This document shows, in pieces, positions 39,137-51,018 of a stretch of DNA of 64,000 nt (position 1 is its first letter; each line of letters begins with the position of its first letter). The notes under the pieces are model-generated. The model saw only the letters and a list, made by a program, of their open reading frames with translations, was not told the origin of the DNA and made no database searches. Both the position numbers and the translations under genes were made by a program. The stretch is from Abditibacterium sp. GTDB lineage: Bacteria > Armatimonadota > Abditibacteriia > Abditibacteriales > Abditibacteriaceae. The stretch lies in contig OZ251992.1 in NCBI GenBank assembly GCA_965246885.1, forward strand, positions 3,040,001 through 3,104,000, given 5' to 3'.

Positions 39137-39553
39137 TCACACTTGCATCAAGATTTGACCGAGCTTGTTCTGCCCCGTGCCCGTGCGTCCGCAACCCCAA
39201 TAGTAGTCAGTGGGCGCGTTCTCGATAAGTTCCTCGTCGCCCGTTCCCAGTAGCAGGGCGCGGGGAATGGCGTGCGTCGTGAACTTACACCGGATGGCGT
39301 CCAGCATCACTTTATTCCGCGTGGTATCCCAATCGGGCAGTATGGGCAGGGCGCGGGTGCGGCCCAGAGCTTTCGCGTCCTTGGGCGTATGGGCGCGGCG
39401 TATGCGTTCGCGGTAGGCGGCGTCGGTGAACTTCTGGGCTTGGAAGTAGTGCTCGACGGTGGGCCAGTAGACGTCGCCCAGTTCGACGCCGTGCGGGGAG
39501 AAGTTCGAGAACTCGAAGTATTCCACCGACTTGGAATAGAAGTAGATCGCCAT
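39137..39553 (-). CDS. NADAR (YbiA/DUF1768) family protein, copy 2; last helix shortened by a TGA
   Basis: FSNF, WPTVEHYFQAQKF, YWGCG, GQNKLGQILM; the frame continues EELR after the TGA. Confidence 0.88.
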   Translation of the reverse strand: MAIYFYSKSVEYFEFSNFSPHGVELGDVYWPTVEHYFQAQKFTDAAYRERIRRAHTPKDAKALGRTRALPILPDWDTTRNKVMLDAIRCKFTTHAIPRALLLGTGDEELIENAPTDYYWGCGRTGTGQNKLGQILMQV

Positions 39554-39556
39554 AGT

Positions 39557-39994
39557 TCAACTGCCTCCGAGTTCGGCGCGCAACTCCATGAGCAGTTCGC
39601 CCAATCTGTTCAGCCCATCGCCGCGCGTTCCGCAGCCCCAGTAAGTGTCGCCAGTCGTCTCTTCGATGATGTCTTCGTCGCCCGTCGAGAGCAGTAGTTC
39701 GCGCAGTTCGGGGTGCGCCGTGAACTTGGCGCGGAGGGCGCGGCGCATGGCGTCGTCTTTGACCGCTTCCCAATCGGGGCGCAGTGGAATGGAGCGCGAG
39801 CGGCCCAACTTCGCGGCGTCCATCGGCGCTTTGGCCAGCCGGATTTGCTCACGGTAGCCTTCGTCCGCGAACTTCTGCGCTTGAAAATACGCCTCGGAAG
39901 TCGGCCAGCGTTGCCCGTCGAGGTCGAACGGGTGCGCCGAGAAGTTCGAGAACTCGCCAAACGGTTTCTTGACGGAGTAAAAGCGAATCGCCAT
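39557..39994 (-). CDS. NADAR (YbiA/DUF1768) family protein, copy 1
   Basis: FSNF, WPTSEAYFQAQKF, LRPDWE, YWGCG, NRLGELLMELR. Confidence 0.9.
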   Translation of the reverse strand: MAIRFYSVKKPFGEFSNFSAHPFDLDGQRWPTSEAYFQAQKFADEGYREQIRLAKAPMDAAKLGRSRSIPLRPDWEAVKDDAMRRALRAKFTAHPELRELLLSTGDEDIIEETTGDTYWGCGTRGDGLNRLGELLMELRAELGGS

Positions 39995-42910: not shown

Positions 42911-43882
42911 CTACTTCTCCCACAACGGCATCATTTCGGCGGAGCCGAAGACGCCATACACGCCGCGCTCACGCAACCAATGGGCGCGGCTGAGATAACC
43001 GAGCGCCGTCCCGCACACGTTGGCGGCCATCGAAGTTTCGTCGCCCAGAATAAAGCGGTGCTCCGATGTGTGGCCGTCGAAGGTTTTGCCGCGCAGTGTC
43101 ATGGTGGTTGAGACGGGCTTGTGGGCGCTCCGCGTGTCCATCACGCCGCCAACAGTCACCTGCTCGCGCCCGCACACGCCCGCGCGCTCCAACATTACGT
43201 CGTCCGCGTGTTCCATGTCGTGCAGCGTCAGCTTGCCGTCGGTTTTGCCAAGCAAGAGTTCGACTTCGTTATCGCTGAGCGCCTTGGCCGATTCGACGTC
43301 GAAACCCGGCAGATGGGCGATGTCCTCGCGGATGGTCGCCTTGTAGTCGTCCCAACGCGCTATCCCGACGCCCCACCAGATGTGGACGGACTCTATCTCG
43401 ATAAACGACTGCGCCGCGAGCGCCGCCGCCGCCGTCAGCATGCCGGGCGTCGCGCCGCAACCACTGAGGAAGGTGCAGCGATTGGCCTTGAGAAGCGGGT
43501 CAAGGTCAAAGATCATTTCCATCGCGCGCGTCCGCTTCAAAGCGTCCACAAGCGCGCCCTGAAAGCCGCCCGCGACGAAGCGTTCGACCACGCCGGGAAT
43601 GAAGTTGTTGGGCAGGTTGGGCAGCGCGAGGAACACGCCGTCGAACTCGTCTTTGAGCTTGACTATCTCGCCGATAGCGTCGTCACTCGCGTGGCCGCCC
43701 GCAAGCCCCGAAACGGAGCCGCCGACTTTGACCTCGCCGATGGCGCGCGCATCCAAACCGCGCGGGTTGAAGGCGAAGCCGCCCGCGTCGGCAATGGCGA
43801 CGAGGGTGTGAGAGGGTTTGTGTGCGAGAATGTGCGCGGCAGCCTTGCCCAAGCCGCCCGCACCTAAGATAGCAATTTTCAT
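42911..43882 (-). CDS. bioU: BioU (BioA-replacing suicide dehydrogenase of biotin synthesis)
   Basis: GAGGLG, LALPNLPN, VDALKRT, GCGATPG, ATIREDIAH, MEHADD, LGDETSMAANVCG match cyanobacterial BioU as recalled. Confidence 0.88.
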   Translation of the reverse strand: MKIAILGAGGLGKAAAHILAHKPSHTLVAIADAGGFAFNPRGLDARAIGEVKVGGSVSGLAGGHASDDAIGEIVKLKDEFDGVFLALPNLPNNFIPGVVERFVAGGFQGALVDALKRTRAMEMIFDLDPLLKANRCTFLSGCGATPGMLTAAAALAAQSFIEIESVHIWWGVGIARWDDYKATIREDIAHLPGFDVESAKALSDNEVELLLGKTDGKLTLHDMEHADDVMLERAGVCGREQVTVGGVMDTRSAHKPVSTTMTLRGKTFDGHTSEHRFILGDETSMAANVCGTALGYLSRAHWLRERGVYGVFGSAEMMPLWEK

Positions 43883-43891
43883 TTGGATTCG

Positions 43892-43925
43892 TTTGACCGC
43901 AGATGAACGCGGATTGACGCAGATG
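43892..43925. repeat. 10-nt-period repeat flanking the GxxExxY gene
   Basis: CGCAGATGAA-CGCGGATTGA-CGCAGAT; 30/34 identical to 46915-46948. Confidence 0.75.
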
Positions 43926-43939
43926 ATTTTGAACGGATT

Positions 43940-44320
43940 TCAAAAGTCGCGCACGACACGCTTGGTTTGAACGCGCGTAGTGCCGAAATTGAGGATGAGG
44001 GCGACTTTAAAACCGGTCGTTTTCAGGTAGTTCAGGCACTGCGCGATGTGCGCTTCGACGATGGCGGGGCGCGACTTGAGTTCGAGCAGAACGCAGCCCT
44101 CAACAACGATGTCGGTGATGAACTCTCCGACCAATTCGCCCTTGTAAAACACCCGAAGCGGTACCTGTTGCTCGACTGCCAGCCCACGAGAGCGCATCTC
44201 GTAGACAAGAGCGTTCTCATAGACCTTCTCCAAATAACCGGGGCGTCAAGCCTTGGCGACTTTAATCGCGCAACCCAAGACACGCCCGGAAATCTCCTTC
44301 AACTCTTCCTCTGTGATCAT
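43940..44320 (-). pseudogene. GxxExxY protein (PD-(D/E)XK-like) with in-frame TGA at 44246-44248
   Basis: Manual translation MITEEELKEISGRVLGCAIKVAKA*RPGYLEKVYENAL..DIVVE..ELKS..QCLNYL..LNFG. Confidence 0.88.
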
Positions 44321-45414
44321 CCGTGAACTCCTCCGTGTTCTCTGTGGCTATGCATTTTATCGAACACCAGCGCCCCGACATGCCCGCCGAAGCCGTAGTT
44401 CAGGCTCAATACCGACTCCACCTTTCCGGCGCGCTCCTCTCGCACGATGTCCAACTCAAAGGCGCTTTCTTCTAAGCCAAGCGTGGGCGGCAGAACACCT
44501 CGCTTGAGCGCCAACACGCACAGCGCCGCTTCGACGGCGCCCGATGCGCCGAGCAGGTGACCTGTGAGCGCCTTGGTGGAGGAAACGGGCACGGTTGCCC
44601 CGAACAAACGGCACAAGGCGCGCGCTTCGACAGCGTCGTTTTGCGCGGTCGCCGTCCCGTGCGCGTTGATGTAGCCGAGGGCCGGGTGGCCCGCCTGCGC
44701 GGAGGCTTCCTCAACAGCACGGATGATGGAATCGCCACCCGGCGCCATCGAAGTCATGTGAGTCGCGTCGGCGCGCATGGAGTAACCGGACACGCGGGCG
44801 TGAACCTTCGCGCCCCGGCTTTGCGCGTGCGCGAGCGATTCGAGAAGGAGGAAGCCACTGCCCGAACCGGGCACGAACCCGTCGCGGCGGGCGTCGAAAG
44901 GACGCATGACGCCCGACTTGGAAAGCGCGCCCATTTGGGCATAGGCCGCCAGCACCATCGGATGTTGCGGCGGCTCCGTCGCGCCGCACAGGACGACGTC
45001 CGCTTCGCCCGACTCGATCAAGCGCGCGCCCAAGATAACCGCGTGGCTGCCCGTCGCGCACGCAGCAACGGGGCACAGCGTTTGGCCACACGCTCCAAAG
45101 CGCGCGGCCAAGTAGTGCGCCGTGTAGTCGGAAAAGAACCCTATCCCCCGCTCGCCGACGGCGCCCTCGAAGGCGCCGAAGTTGTTCTTGGAAACGCCCC
45201 AAACTACCGAGCGCCGCGCATATTGATCGCCCGAAATCTGGTTGAACAGCCCCTGCCCTTCGCGGGGCACAAGGTCAAGGATGCCCGCGTGCCCCGCAGG
45301 AATCGCCGAGAAGACGCCCGAACCGCGCGAGCGCGAACTCCAGCCGCCGATGGGGGCGCCGGTCGCATCCGTGATGACGGCGCCAAAGCCCGTCACGGCG
45401 ACTTGTTGCTTCAT
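44317..45414 (-). CDS. Divergent beta-ketoacyl-ACP synthase (FabF/FabB-like)
   Basis: AACATGS (Cys), NAHGTAT (His), KALTGHLLGASG (Lys, His), RPFDARRDGFV, FGFGG-like YGFGG; ATGA overlap with the upstream SDR. Confidence 0.88.
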   Translation of the reverse strand: MKQQVAVTGFGAVITDATGAPIGGWSSRSRGSGVFSAIPAGHAGILDLVPREGQGLFNQISGDQYARRSVVWGVSKNNFGAFEGAVGERGIGFFSDYTAHYLAARFGACGQTLCPVAACATGSHAVILGARLIESGEADVVLCGATEPPQHPMVLAAYAQMGALSKSGVMRPFDARRDGFVPGSGSGFLLLESLAHAQSRGAKVHARVSGYSMRADATHMTSMAPGGDSIIRAVEEASAQAGHPALGYINAHGTATAQNDAVEARALCRLFGATVPVSSTKALTGHLLGASGAVEAALCVLALKRGVLPPTLGLEESAFELDIVREERAGKVESVLSLNYGFGGHVGALVFDKMHSHREHGGVHG

Positions 45415-46094
45415 AGACGGCAGTCGGGCCTCAGCACCTGCCCGCTCGTGCGAGAGTTTGCCGTTAAAAACCACTGGACAAACGCGGCCAACGCCTGCGC
45501 CGCGTCGCTGTCGGGCACTACATTCTCTAACGCGCGCTGAGCCTTGGTGCGCGGCGAAAGCGCTTCGTCGGGCGTCGGAGCGTAGCCGGGGCACAGCGCG
45601 TTGACCCGAACGCCCCGCTCGCCCCCTTCGATGGCCGCCGTGCGCATCAGTCCTAACACCCCCGCTTTGGCGGCGCCGTAAGCGCTTTGACCGATGCTTC
45701 CCCGAAGTCCCACGCGCGACGACACAAGTAGCAGTTGCCCGCCGGAAGGCAGGTACTCCAGCGCCGCGCGGGTAACGAGAAACGACGAATCGAGGTGCGC
45801 CGCCAACACGTCTCGCCACTCCTCCGGTGAAGTGCGCGCAACGAGCGCGCTGTGCGAAGCGCCCGCCAGATGAACGACGGCAGTAAACTGGTGCGCTGTA
45901 AACAGCGCACCCACCGCTTCCTCGTCGCGCAAGTCGCCTTGCCACAAGGCGCAGCCGGTTTGCTCGCGCAGGTGCGTGGCGCGCTCGCGGTTCGAGGCAA
46001 ACGTGGCGACGACATCGTGGCCTCCCGCGCACAGTTCCCGCGTCAAGGCGCTCCCCAAGGTGCCCGTCCCGCCCGTCACCAGAACCCGTTGCAT
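45411..46094 (-). CDS. FabG-like SDR (3-oxoacyl-ACP reductase-like)
   Basis: TGGTGTLG, SSRVG..GQSAYGAAK, VNALCPG. Confidence 0.82.
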   Translation of the reverse strand: MQRVLVTGGTGTLGSALTRELCAGGHDVVATFASNRERATHLREQTGCALWQGDLRDEEAVGALFTAHQFTAVVHLAGASHSALVARTSPEEWRDVLAAHLDSSFLVTRAALEYLPSGGQLLLVSSRVGLRGSIGQSAYGAAKAGVLGLMRTAAIEGGERGVRVNALCPGYAPTPDEALSPRTKAQRALENVVPDSDAAQALAAFVQWFLTANSRTSGQVLRPDCRL

Positions 46095-46128: not shown

Positions 46129-46911
46129 ATGGTGTGGCACAACGGCGAGCTACGGGAAACGGCGTGGGTGGACGCTTCGAGTGCGGGCCTCACCCTCGGC
46201 TGGGGCGTCTTTTCGACCCTTGCCGTGCGCGAGGGGCGCGCGACGCTGGTAGCGCAACACGTGGCGCGGCTACGGCGCGACGCGGCGCGGTGTGCGGTCG
46301 AAGTGCCCTTTTCAAACGCGCAACTGAGCGAGGGCTTGGGCGCGGTGATTGCCGCAAACGGCGTGCGAAACGGACTCGCGCGCCTGACGGCAACGCGGCG
46401 GGGGGATGGGCGTTGGAACACGGACGCGGCGGGCAGCGAGGTGACGATTCTGGCGCTCGAAGCGGCGCCGTCCAAGGTGCGCGGCTTGCGCGTGACGGTC
46501 GCACCTGCGCCGGAGTTGGGGGCGCTCCGGGGCGTGAAGACAACGTCGTATCTGCCCTTTTTGTGGGAGTGGCAACGCGCACTCGCGGCGGGGTACGACG
46601 AAGTGATACTGCTCGATGCGCAGGAGCAGGTGGTGGAAGCGGCGCGCTCAAGCCTGTTCTGGGTGCGCGGCGGGCGCTTGGAAACATCGCCGCTTGCGTC
46701 GGGCGCACTCGAAGGCATCGGGCGCGACATTGTGCTGCGCGGGGGCCGCGAAGCGCAGTTGCATCGGAGCGAGTTGGTGGCGTGTGAGGAACTCCTGCTG
46801 GTTTCGGCAGCAACAGGGCCGCGCTCCATTGCGGCAGTCGAGGGAACGGAACTGCCGCGAGAAGCGCCGGTCTTCGAGCGGTTGCGCGCGTGGTGGGACG
46901 AACAAATTTAA
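46129..46911 (+). CDS. Class IV PLP enzyme (PabC / branched-chain aminotransferase-like)
   Basis: GWGVFSTL, HVARL, KTTSY, LEGIGR. Confidence 0.8.
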   Translation: MVWHNGELRETAWVDASSAGLTLGWGVFSTLAVREGRATLVAQHVARLRRDAARCAVEVPFSNAQLSEGLGAVIAANGVRNGLARLTATRRGDGRWNTDAAGSEVTILALEAAPSKVRGLRVTVAPAPELGALRGVKTTSYLPFLWEWQRALAAGYDEVILLDAQEQVVEAARSSLFWVRGGRLETSPLASGALEGIGRDIVLRGGREAQLHRSELVACEELLLVSAATGPRSIAAVEGTELPREAPVFERLRAWWDEQI

Positions 46912-49769: not shown

Positions 49770-50336
49770 ATGCAACCACAACTCGACGCGCCGCCGGACG
49801 TGCCACCCATTGCCTCTCCCTCTGGCTCCGCTCCGCCGGTCACCGAATCCCCGAAACACGACCCCCGATTTGTTTTGCAAGTCGTGCAACCCGGTCTACT
49901 CGGTTTGATGGACGGCTCCGTCTCAACGCTCGCTCCCATCTTCGCCACTGCTGGACTCACCCACAACCCCCACGACGCCTTTTTAGTCGGCATGGCCGGT
50001 TCCCTTGGCGCAGGACTGAGCATGGGACTTGCCGAAGCCCTCTCGGACGACGGCGAAGTTTCGGGGCGCGGCACCCCGCTCAAACGCGGAGCCATTACGG
50101 GCATCGCCACTTTCGTCGGCGGCGCGTTGCACTCATTGCCCTTCTTGATTCAGAACTTGCAAGCCGCCCTCCATCTCGCCTACGCCGTCGTCGTCGCCGA
50201 ACTGCTCACCATCGCCTTCATCCGCTACCGCTACATGAAAAGCCCGCTCGCTCAAACTGTTGGCCAAGTCATCATCGGCGGCGGCATCGTCTTCCTCATC
50301 GGCGTCTGGCTGGGCCGTTTCGGAGCGGGGGGCTAA
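49770..50336 (+). CDS. VIT1/CCC1-family (MbfA-like) iron transporter
   Basis: [38 protein letters not shown]. Confidence 0.85.
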
Positions 50337-50340
50337 ATCT

Positions 50341-51018
50341 ATGGGAATGGAACATATCGAAATCATCATGCGCGTGGAGGAGGAATTCGGCATTGAGGTC
50401 GCCGACCGCGAAGCGGAAGCCGTGCGGACGCCGCGCGACTTGTGCGCCCTGATAGAGCGCAAAGTCGCGCTTCTCGCCGCCGAGCAAAGCTCCGGTTGCC
50501 CGTCGAGTCGCGCGTTTTATCGGGTGCGGCGCGAGCTAACTGCGTTGGGCATTGAGCGGGCGGATGTCAAACCGGGCGCGACGGTCGAGGCGCTCCTGCC
50601 GCTCGCAAACCGCCGCGCGCTGTGGAAGCAGTTGGACGAGCGGCTGGAAGTCGGTCTGCGCCCGCTCCACCGTTCGCCCTTTTGGACTTACGTGGCCTTG
50701 TCGCCCCTTGCGGCGCTACCCTTCGTGTGGCATTTCGCGGGCGAAGCGCCGATGGTGGCCATGTGCTTTTGCCTGCCGCTCGTATGGTGGGTTGGATTTC
50801 GGGCGACTCAGCCGTTGGCCGTTCGTGTCCCGACGAAGCATGAGACCGTAGCCCACCTGTCGCGCCGTCTCGCGTCCACGTTGCCCGTAGTCGGAGATGA
50901 ATCTCCGACGCGCGAGCTATGGCCGCAGTTGCAAGGGATTCTCTCCGACGAACTGGGCGTCCCGCTCGAAAAGGTGACGCCCGACGCCGACTTTGTGCGC
51001 GATTTGGGCGTGGGTTAA
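50341..51018 (+). CDS. Circularly permuted ACP-like membrane protein
   Basis: N-terminus EIIMRVEEEFGIEVAD resembles the ACP C-half; C-terminus ILSDELGV..VTPDADFVRDLG resembles the ACP N-half; two TM helices between them. Confidence 0.7.
   Translation: MGMEHIEIIMRVEEEFGIEVADREAEAVRTPRDLCALIERKVALLAAEQSSGCPSSRAFYRVRRELTALGIERADVKPGATVEALLPLANRRALWKQLDERLEVGLRPLHRSPFWTYVALSPLAALPFVWHFAGEAPMVAMCFCLPLVWWVGFRATQPLAVRVPTKHETVAHLSRRLASTLPVVGDESPTRELWPQLQGILSDELGVPLEKVTPDADFVRDLGVG

Follow-up and report, generated by a model that had tools for sequence, protein, structure and literature searches.

Introduction

KS/KR biotin clusters are already known from Desulfovibrio, for which a 2004 prediction placed genes for an ACP and for FabF-like, FabG-like and FabZ-like proteins in a bio cluster (PMC545781). 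In D. vulgaris it comprises DVU2558-DVU2565, with the ketosynthase (KS) DVU2563, the KR DVU2561, the ACP DVU2562 and the FabZ-like DVU2560 (PMC545781, PMC10102598). Genetic support came from the finding that the extended cluster is needed for growth without biotin, and the route has been reported solely from anaerobes of a few phyla, although Fig. S3 of the same paper may hold more hosts (PMC10102598). BioZ of alpha-proteobacteria is a FabH-type enzyme that uses glutaryl-CoA in a single round and needs no private reductase; the bottom of its pocket is basic or polar, and malonyl-CoA is not used as primer (PMC7645780, PMC8024396). In FabF itself, the I108-F202 gate meets the bound chain at C7-C8 (PMC9006962). 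Here we describe a locus of Abditibacterium in which a FabF-type KS and a FabG-like SDR stand next to bioU. What is new in the Abditibacteriaceae is this two-gene form beside BioU, plus a link through a basic gate to PRK05952, a second FabF of cyanobacteria.

Results and Discussion

The window analysed here is the whole 64,000-nt stretch of contig OZ251992.1. The four co-oriented minus-strand genes SDR, KS, GxxExxY and bioU that an earlier note had described are present where it placed them, and the ATGA overlaps it reported between SDR and KS (45411-45414) and between KS and the GxxExxY gene (44317-44320) were read directly in the sequence. The SDR (45411..46094, minus strand, 227 aa) is FabG-like, a probable 3-oxoacyl-ACP reductase predicted to act on a carboxylate-ended chain. 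It is followed by the KS (44317..45414, minus strand, 365 aa), by the GxxExxY gene (43940..44320, minus strand), broken by an in-frame TGA at codon 25, and by bioU (42911..43882, minus strand, 323 aa). Head to head with the SDR, with 34 nt separating the two starts, lies a class IV aminotransferase or PabC-like gene (46129..46911, plus strand), a conserved neighbour whose part in the pathway would be only conjectural. Promoter and terminator scans of the locus gave chance level only.

The bioU product, a putative BioA replacement, aligns end to end with Synechocystis Slr0355 (phmmer E 1e-105, residues 2-321). Its sole family match is NCBIfam NF047886, with a score of 426 bits, which is under the cut-off of 600 that none of the 14 Abditibacteriaceae matches reached; in this score, and in representing a new host family, it differs from Slr0355. 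In the alignment the counterpart of Lys116, within DALKR, is residue 136 in the 343-residue chain of PDB 6ir4, which we take to be K124 of Slr0355 if the chain has 12 residues in addition to the native length. K124 is the lysine that Slr0355 sacrifices (PMC12704756). As expected where BioU replaces BioA, bioF, bioD and bioB were found elsewhere in the same genome (92.7% complete), all three being absent from the window as the earlier note had said, and neither BioA nor BioH was found in that genome.

The KS keeps the Cys-His-His triad, Cys119-His252-His286 aligning with C163-H303-H340 of E. coli FabF, and its shortness, also remarked on earlier, is mainly due to deletions at FabF 59-86 and 118-129. 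Structure comparison gave a FabF fold (Z 48.6, rmsd 1.8 over 344 residues). The protein carries KAS I/II Pfam domains and scores below the cut-offs of both TIGR03150 (housekeeping FabF; 258 bits, cut-off 493.75) and NF004618 (PRK05952; 248 bits, cut-off 455). The hydrophobic I108-F202 gate of FabF is not kept: in the alignment Ser75-Lys76 and Tyr158 replace Gly107-Ile108 and Phe202, and Lys76 falls on I108, the residue altered in the B. subtilis I108F structure. Position 108 is Lys or Arg in 120/120 homologues of the KS and in 0/49 other KSs of the same alignment, and position 202 is Tyr in 119 of the 120. The pair could in principle serve biotin synthesis otherwise, for instance by moving or trimming a ready dicarboxyl chain onto the carrier of BioF with no net elongation. 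KS-fold acyl transferases exist, the AmcF model scoring 183 bits on our KS, and three Omnitrophota bio operons have a related SDR with no KS nearby, but the residues of condensation are all retained (Cys, His, His and Lys335 in 120/120 homologues, Phe400 in the 27/27 aligned), which makes this reading highly improbable.

The SDR has the catalytic residues Ser126-Tyr139-Lys143 plus an invariant Arg127 and Asp224-x-Arg226. The pair does not represent the only fabF and fabG of the genome, as the earlier note had allowed that it might: a housekeeping fabH-fabD-fabG-acpP-fabF cluster lies separately at C1:2819709-2824907, and trees against housekeeping FabF and FabG place both proteins apart from the genome's own. 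A housekeeping identity is thereby ruled out, and neither tree shows a recent duplicate of the genome's fabF or fabG. FabZ is present in single copy, as is FabH, which sits within the fab cluster. With this sole FabH located there, and given the KAS I/II domains and the Cys-His-His triad, the KS is also ruled out as a BioZ on fold and triad.

Among 27 Abditibacteriaceae genomes the KS was found in 23 and the SDR in 25, each in single copy. Linkage to bioU is conserved in relatives: in 19/23 genomes the KS shares the strand of bioU and lies upstream of it by at most 4 kb. In 6 of these 19, other genes, partly of opposite orientation, stand between the two; the KS is unlinked in 3/23 and without a call in 1/23. 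In 19/23 genomes the SDR is found upstream of the KS at a distance of at most 3 kb, and bioF-bioD often comes after bioU (bioF within about 4 kb downstream in 10/20 bioU regions). With linkage conserved throughout the family, the arrangement is more than chance, the family being one lineage whose counts are mutually dependent. Profiles of the KS and SDR matched 14/14 members of the family and 0/137 others in the phylum, a contrast that is partly by construction as the profiles were built from Abditibacteriaceae itself. A complete BioC/BioH-type route, which the earlier note had set against its own proposal, was not found: BioC (at E<=1e-25) and BioW were each detected in 0/27 family genomes, and in the positive controls for both. 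This absence alone does not demand the KS, because five other BioU genomes gave no basic-gate KS, BioW or BioC with the queries used.

The same pair appears in a second phylum. Omnitrophota operons, on which we found no paper in the literature searched, have the order bioB-SDR-KS-bioF-bioA-bioD, and in 16/16 of their KSs the gate is Ser107-Lys108 with Tyr202. They share with the Abditibacterium locus the SDR-then-KS order and a short loop before the PFD motif, and their SDRs have the same Ser-Arg and C-terminal Asp/Glu-x-Arg; they differ in having BioA, not BioU, and a KS that is about 400 aa long and lacks the large deletions in the N-terminal part. The loop, common to the Abditibacteriaceae, Omnitrophota and cyanobacterial groups, is weak evidence because an unrelated KS of the Abditibacterium genome has it too. 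In the SDR tree the Abditibacteriaceae and Omnitrophota bio-operon proteins form a clade at 100/99 against 25 other SDRs, with bootstrap unsettled and the signature columns retained. In the KS tree, with the gate columns removed, the Abditibacteriaceae KS groups tentatively with the Omnitrophota KSs and PRK05952, at a moderate 82/69, and its mean identity to the Omnitrophota KSs (34.5%) is not above that to FabF. Across 40 Omnitrophota regions the KS occurs in 16, BioC in 14 and both in none, but 14 of these regions were chosen for a KS near bioD, and in the 26 blind ones (2 KS, 14 BioC) the exclusion is not significant (Fisher p 0.20). That the KS must always go with BioU is ruled out by these operons, in which the pair goes with BioA, and by the five BioU genomes that lack the KS; the pair, which the earlier note had seen as coupled to bioU, is not bound to it.

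We also considered that the pair might make some other short acidic acyl product, for a lipid or small polyketide, its position by bioU being inherited gene order and pimelate coming from BioE, from BioI, as free pimelate via fatty-acid synthesis, or from outside. Conservation in the bioU/KS region extends to unrelated genes (GxxExxY, aminotransferase IV, D-Ala-D-Ala dipeptidase-like, YaeI-like phosphodiesterase, kinase), the linkage has been lost in three genomes, every precursor gene tested is missing from the five BioU genomes, and the cyanobacterial look-alikes neighbour ycf4 and a cyclophilin, none of 117 such loci containing a bio gene. Set against this, another phylum has compact bio operons, exclusive of BioC, in which the SDR belongs to the clade of ours and the KS shares its gate, and in the family's loci the pair is accompanied by neither an ACP nor an acyl ligase nor a tailoring gene. 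We therefore judge a product outside biotin synthesis to be decidedly improbable.

Taken together our results point to a very probable role of the SDR-KS pair in the pimeloyl step of biotin, as judged from sequence, and we favour, with less assurance, a methyl-free pimeloyl-ACP module in a two-round form from a malonyl-ACP primer. We infer its substrate, number of rounds, carrier and shared dehydratase and reductase as follows. KS and SDR would build a pimeloyl (C7 diacid) thioester with no need for the methyl ester by which BioC-BioH disguise the chain. As its substrate the KS would accept an acyl chain ending in a free carboxylate, and Lys76 and Tyr158, in place of the hydrophobic back gate, could bind this carboxylate and end elongation at C7. 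A malonyl-ACP primer and malonyl-ACP would give 3-oxoglutaryl-ACP and then glutaryl-ACP, from which a second round would lead via 3-oxopimeloyl-ACP to pimeloyl-ACP. The charged 3-oxo intermediates would be reduced by the SDR via its extra Arg127 and Arg226, the remaining steps would be supplied by housekeeping ACP, FabD, FabZ and an enoyl reductase, and pimeloyl-ACP would then pass to BioF, BioU, BioD and BioB to yield biotin. Since E. coli FabG, FabA and FabI process 3-oxopimeloyl-ACP (PMC7645780), the presence of a reductase specific to the module speaks for an intermediate that is short and charged. The locus resembles the D. vulgaris cluster in its gene content, a FabF-like KS and a FabG-like 3-oxoacyl reductase beside bio genes, with BioC, BioH and BioW not found where searched, and in the proposed methyl-free elongation to pimeloyl-ACP. 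It differs in lacking the dedicated ACP, FabZ-like dehydratase and nitroreductase-like gene and in using BioU for BioA; no dedicated ACP was found in the family's bioU/KS loci, and the second ACP of the genome is far from the bio genes. The earlier suggestion that a private FabF/FabG pair makes the pimeloyl precursor is thus well supported as to role, but as a new kind of route it is preceded by Desulfovibrio (PMC545781, PMC10102598).

The KS would also resemble BioZ in being a condensing enzyme that takes a free end carboxylate through polar or basic residues at the pocket bottom, which for the KS is a prediction, and differs in being FabF-type. One possibility is that it works in one round, joining glutaryl-CoA or -ACP from lysine or other breakdown to malonyl-ACP to form 3-oxopimeloyl-ACP, which the SDR would reduce. 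BioZ itself works so, the I108-F202 gate is where a glutaryl carboxylate would reach, and the cyanobacterial look-alike has no adjoining SDR. We consider this unlikely, as BioZ does without a private reductase, yet the SDR is kept throughout most of the family and mostly near the KS, and FabF-type enzymes normally take ACP-bound primers.

The proposed two-round module has a wider bearing through PRK05952, reportedly long regarded as a spare fatty-acid synthase. Members of PRK05952 have Ser-Ser-Arg at the 106-108 gate and a Pro four residues before the catalytic Cys; the basic residue at FabF 108, Ser107 and Pro159 are common to them and the KS. They also have a shortened N-terminal part and loop and fall on the same side of the tree, and they differ in having Arg instead of Lys, in keeping Phe202 and in their gene neighbours. 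An SDR of the Abditibacterium type was not found adjoining the cyanobacterial genes, and for cyanobacteria one control genome is the basis for saying that PRK05952 occurs together with BioU and excludes BioC. Because the Abditibacteriaceae locus puts such a KS beside bioU-bioF-bioD, we hold it nearly as likely as not that basic-gate FabF paralogues are one widespread class of methyl-free pimeloyl-ACP synthases, with PRK05952 (presumably including slr1332 of Synechocystis) as the missing first biotin stage in BioU-type cyanobacteria. If the look-alike has the same job, this would close a gap that a 2020 review on the metabolism of Synechocystis pointed out when it called the pimeloyl source undetermined, and a gene that engineering studies have targeted as a fatty-acid synthase would be re-assigned. 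The Abditibacterium locus offers a two-gene form with named residues, Lys76 and Tyr158 of the KS and Arg127 and Arg226 of the SDR. In the literature searched, largely without subscription papers and without supplements, we found neither a biotin role for PRK05952 nor a paper tying such a KS to BioU, Abditibacteriaceae or slr1332.

When 1.84 billion representatives were searched with a profile, modular polyketide synthases took up the whole result and no outside relatives emerged; on plasmids the searches returned only haloarchaeal BioU and ordinary FabF-type genes. The clusters found in the atlas searches were generic for both KS and SDR, and one KS cluster, a lead only, was mostly cyanobacterial. 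The TGA within the GxxExxY gene was present in contigs of both public runs aligned, with no alternative letters, and a sequencing error is ruled out, one of the runs possibly being the source of the assembly. GxxExxY stands at the corresponding place in only 5/20 of the relatives' bioU regions; it is no part of the pathway but a passenger.

Genes in the window and in the genome

Re-reading of the sequence confirmed the four minus-strand genes first described here, an SDR (45411-46094), a ketosynthase (KS; 44317-45414), a GxxExxY gene (43940-44320) with a stop at codon 25 and bioU (42911-43882), as well as both ATGA overlaps. In a profile scan the top family models of the SDR were FabG (112 of 222 bits, far under the cut-off), the KS reached 258 of 494 bits against the fabF model and 248 of 455 against PRK05952 (NF004618, a cyanobacterial second FabF), and bioU matched only the BioU family model NF047886 (426 of 600 bits). 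Its closest relatives are from Abditibacterium or Abditibacteriaceae, and its Lys116 aligns with the sacrificed lysine. A short repeat-like element in the GxxExxY/bioU gap (43892-43929) is matched by contigs of many other sequences, and two tandem NADAR-domain genes (39137-39994, minus strand) close the co-oriented run bioU-recJ-sugar kinase.

The genome (3.56 Mb, 92.7% complete), in which the window spans C1:3040001-3104000, carries a normal housekeeping fabH-fabD-fabG-acpP-fabF cluster on the same contig (C1:2819709-2824907), so that the SDR/KS pair is extra, as the earlier note held in calling it dedicated. One FabH, one FabD, one FabZ and two ACPs were found; the second ACP is far from every bio gene, and no dedicated ACP or dehydratase accompanies the pair. 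An open reading frame at 50260-51018 (plus strand) with an ACP-like (PF00550) start, an ACP-like end and a hydrophobic middle is unlinked to bio genes in relatives. Both bioB and bioD exceed their model cut-offs; bioF, 33 kb away from the window, reaches 405 of 426 bits. BioC was not found (best of 13 methyltransferases 76 of 185 bits), nor were BioA and BioH at thresholds at which the controls were detected; these searches turned up no complete BioC/BioH-type route.

Conservation in Abditibacteriaceae

The KS is present in 23/27 family genomes (16/16 of good quality) and the SDR in 25/27, each always as a single copy. Linkage to bioU is kept in relatives: in 19 of the 23 KS genomes, our own included, the KS precedes bioU on that strand by no more than 4 kb, either adjacent to it (7) or separated from it by GxxExxY alone (6) or by other genes, some of them oppositely oriented (6). 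It is unlinked in three (G019, G020, G021) and could not be placed in one (G001). In 19/23 the SDR lies no more than 3 kb ahead of the KS. Of 20 regions, 10 have bioF downstream of bioU at a distance of up to about 4 kb, and 6 have bioD after bioF; the family arrangement is therefore SDR-KS-bioU-bioF-bioD, with passengers. Other, unrelated genes are also kept in the same region. A class IV aminotransferase/PabC-like gene (46129-46911, plus strand) stands head to head with the SDR in 13/20 relatives' regions and stays with it where the SDR leaves the KS (G009, G011). In 10/20 regions (L051, L052, L053, L055-L058, L062, L063, L079) bioU has a D-Ala-D-Ala dipeptidase-like gene on its downstream side, mostly ahead of bioF; in our genome this gene is still near bioF (C1:3009313-3010149).

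Across the 27 family genomes neither BioC (E<=1e-25) nor BioW was detected. Of 151 genomes surveyed in the phylum, the same 14, every one Abditibacteriaceae, have BioU, KS and SDR. This co-occurrence counts little because the 14 are a single lineage, the family itself supplied two of the three profiles, and scoring took in only some of the candidates in each genome.

A basic gate in the ketosynthase

The KS model is confident (pLDDT 91.8) and FabF-like (Z 48.6, rmsd 1.8 over 344 residues), and the protein is short because of deletions aligned to FabF 59-86 and 118-129. In an alignment with B. subtilis FabF, wild type and I108F mutant, S-G-I-G of that enzyme corresponds to S-S-K-G of the family, which puts Lys at Ile108. 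In this protein Ser75-Lys76 replace Gly107-Ile108, and Tyr158 replaces Phe202. Among the 120 listed of 162 KS homologues, Ser, Lys/Arg and the triad with Lys335 occur in 120 and Tyr in 119; Lys/Arg at 108 is found in 0/49 other KSs, one mis-extracted bioF row having been dropped. A review puts the I108-F202 back gate level with C7-C8 of the acyl chain in the pocket and adds that methyl-glutaryl extends that far (PMC9006962). The Lys76 side chain would, judging from the alignment, point into the pocket. Besides its conserved Ser-Tyr-Lys, the SDR has two invariant arginines, Arg127 and Arg226, as putative carboxylate binders. Elsewhere in the genome (C1:1030405-1035367) another KS, with Phe at 108, the short KS-like partner gene behind it and a nearby SDR make up their own small type II synthase cluster.

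A probable pimeloyl module of a known kind

Taken together the pair is real and conserved, and probably a methyl-free pimeloyl module. Counting against this are the unrelated genes kept around bioU, the missing dedicated ACP and dehydratase, and the BioU genomes and loci described below that lack such a KS. We consider it rather likely that the pair would take malonyl, bound to the housekeeping ACP, through two rounds of elongation to pimeloyl-ACP, which would pass through BioF, BioU, BioD and BioB to biotin. A single glutaryl-primed condensation by the KS is a less likely alternative: in the BioZ system ordinary E. coli FabG, FabA and FabI complete 3-oxopimeloyl-ACP and malonyl-CoA is no primer (PMC7645780), so that a private reductase is best explained by a short 3-oxoglutaryl step. 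The KS is distinct from BioZ (PMC8024396).

The extended bio operon of Desulfovibrio, for which a pimeloyl route was proposed in 2004 (PMC545781), offers a precedent; when biotin is withheld, the genes for its KS, reductase, ACP and FabZ-like proteins have been found to be important (PMC10102598). The Abditibacteriaceae locus probably works in a similar manner. The ACP and dehydratases of the Desulfovibrio operon are missing here, so we set the locus apart on gene content and do not file it as a Desulfovibrio-type member. The private FabF/FabG route put forward in the earlier note stands as a probable module with conserved linkage, but not as a new kind: the pair beside bioU is a variant of the already known KS/reductase biotin clusters.

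Omnitrophota biotin operons

No other result speaks as strongly for a part in biotin synthesis as the SDR tree, in which 15 family and 14 Omnitrophota bio-operon SDRs split from 25 housekeeping or paralogous SDRs at 100/99. We sampled 40 of 135 Omnitrophota bioD regions, 14 chosen for a nearby KS and 26 blind. The KS occurs in 16/40, in 15 of these as (bioB)-SDR-KS-bioF-bioA-bioD, and all 16 carry S-S-S-K-G and Tyr202. BioC occurs in 14/40 and never together with the KS (Fisher p 0.0001 for all 40 and 0.20 for the blind 26, kin not being independent). Three regions hold an SDR of the same clade without the Ser-Arg motif (L347:4281-4994, L353:10430-11137, L354:4133-4843), in operons bioB-SDR-bioF-...-bioD-bioA with no KS or BioC nearby. 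L347 also encodes a 465-aa protein with no Pfam match between bioF and bioD.

BioU genomes and the cyanobacterial second FabF

Five BioU genomes outside the family (G028, G166, G167, G208, G240; bioU loci L027, L080, L081, L367, L350) have bioF and mostly bioD and bioB, with no BioW, no BioC and no basic-gate KS among 9 matches. Missing BioC/BioW therefore does not require such a KS, although these genomes may be incomplete. Among 69 BioU loci, the haloarchaeal, Methanoperedens, Planctomycetota-labelled, Omnitrophota and Sumerlaeia records gave no KS match.

Scanning metagenomes for a short motif yielded at least 117 cyanobacterial loci; the motif included Pro159 and not Arg108, and the invariance of Pro159 in them is by construction. 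Among the 117 listed, 103 are KS-like, and a Gly-Ser-Ser-Arg-type pattern was found in 93 by script and 7 more on reading, 3 not covering the site. These KSs retain Phe202. Of 12 scanned, 9 passed the PRK05952 cut-off, and PRK05952 was the best family for all 12. No bioU, bioF, bioD or bioB occurs in the 117 loci, 37 of which span only about 600 bases. With gate columns removed, a tree of 54 rows thinned from 114 placed the KSs of Abditibacteriaceae, Omnitrophota and cyanobacteria on one side of a branch and 22 others on the other (82/69, with a bootstrap that had not settled). In a quick tree made before under a mixture model, with no Omnitrophota in it, the SH-aLRT value was 97. Since mean identity among the three groups (31-35%) is no higher than to FabF (32-37%), convergence is possible.

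We take slr1332 to be the PRK05952 member of Synechocystis. An engineering paper handles sll1069 and slr1332 as two FabFs (PMC5798194), and a review gives this organism BioF, BioU, BioD and BioB, no BioC/BioH, and a pimeloyl-ACP synthesis still undetermined (PMC7133116). In a single control, Synechococcus elongatus, BioC and BioA were detected, BioU was not and no PRK05952 match exceeded the cut-off, which fits a cyanobacterial reading: it is a serious though tentative possibility that basic-gate FabF paralogues are methyl-free pimeloyl-ACP synthases and that PRK05952 is the missing first biotin stage in BioU-type cyanobacteria. Among the loci listed, the cyanobacterial KS neighbours a cyclophilin gene in 50/59, ycf4 in 42 and a gene that we take to be psbD-like in 20. 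The PRK05952 gene has a fixed place after ycf4 and cyclophilin, often near the psbD-like gene (L152-L231, e.g. L194, L226).
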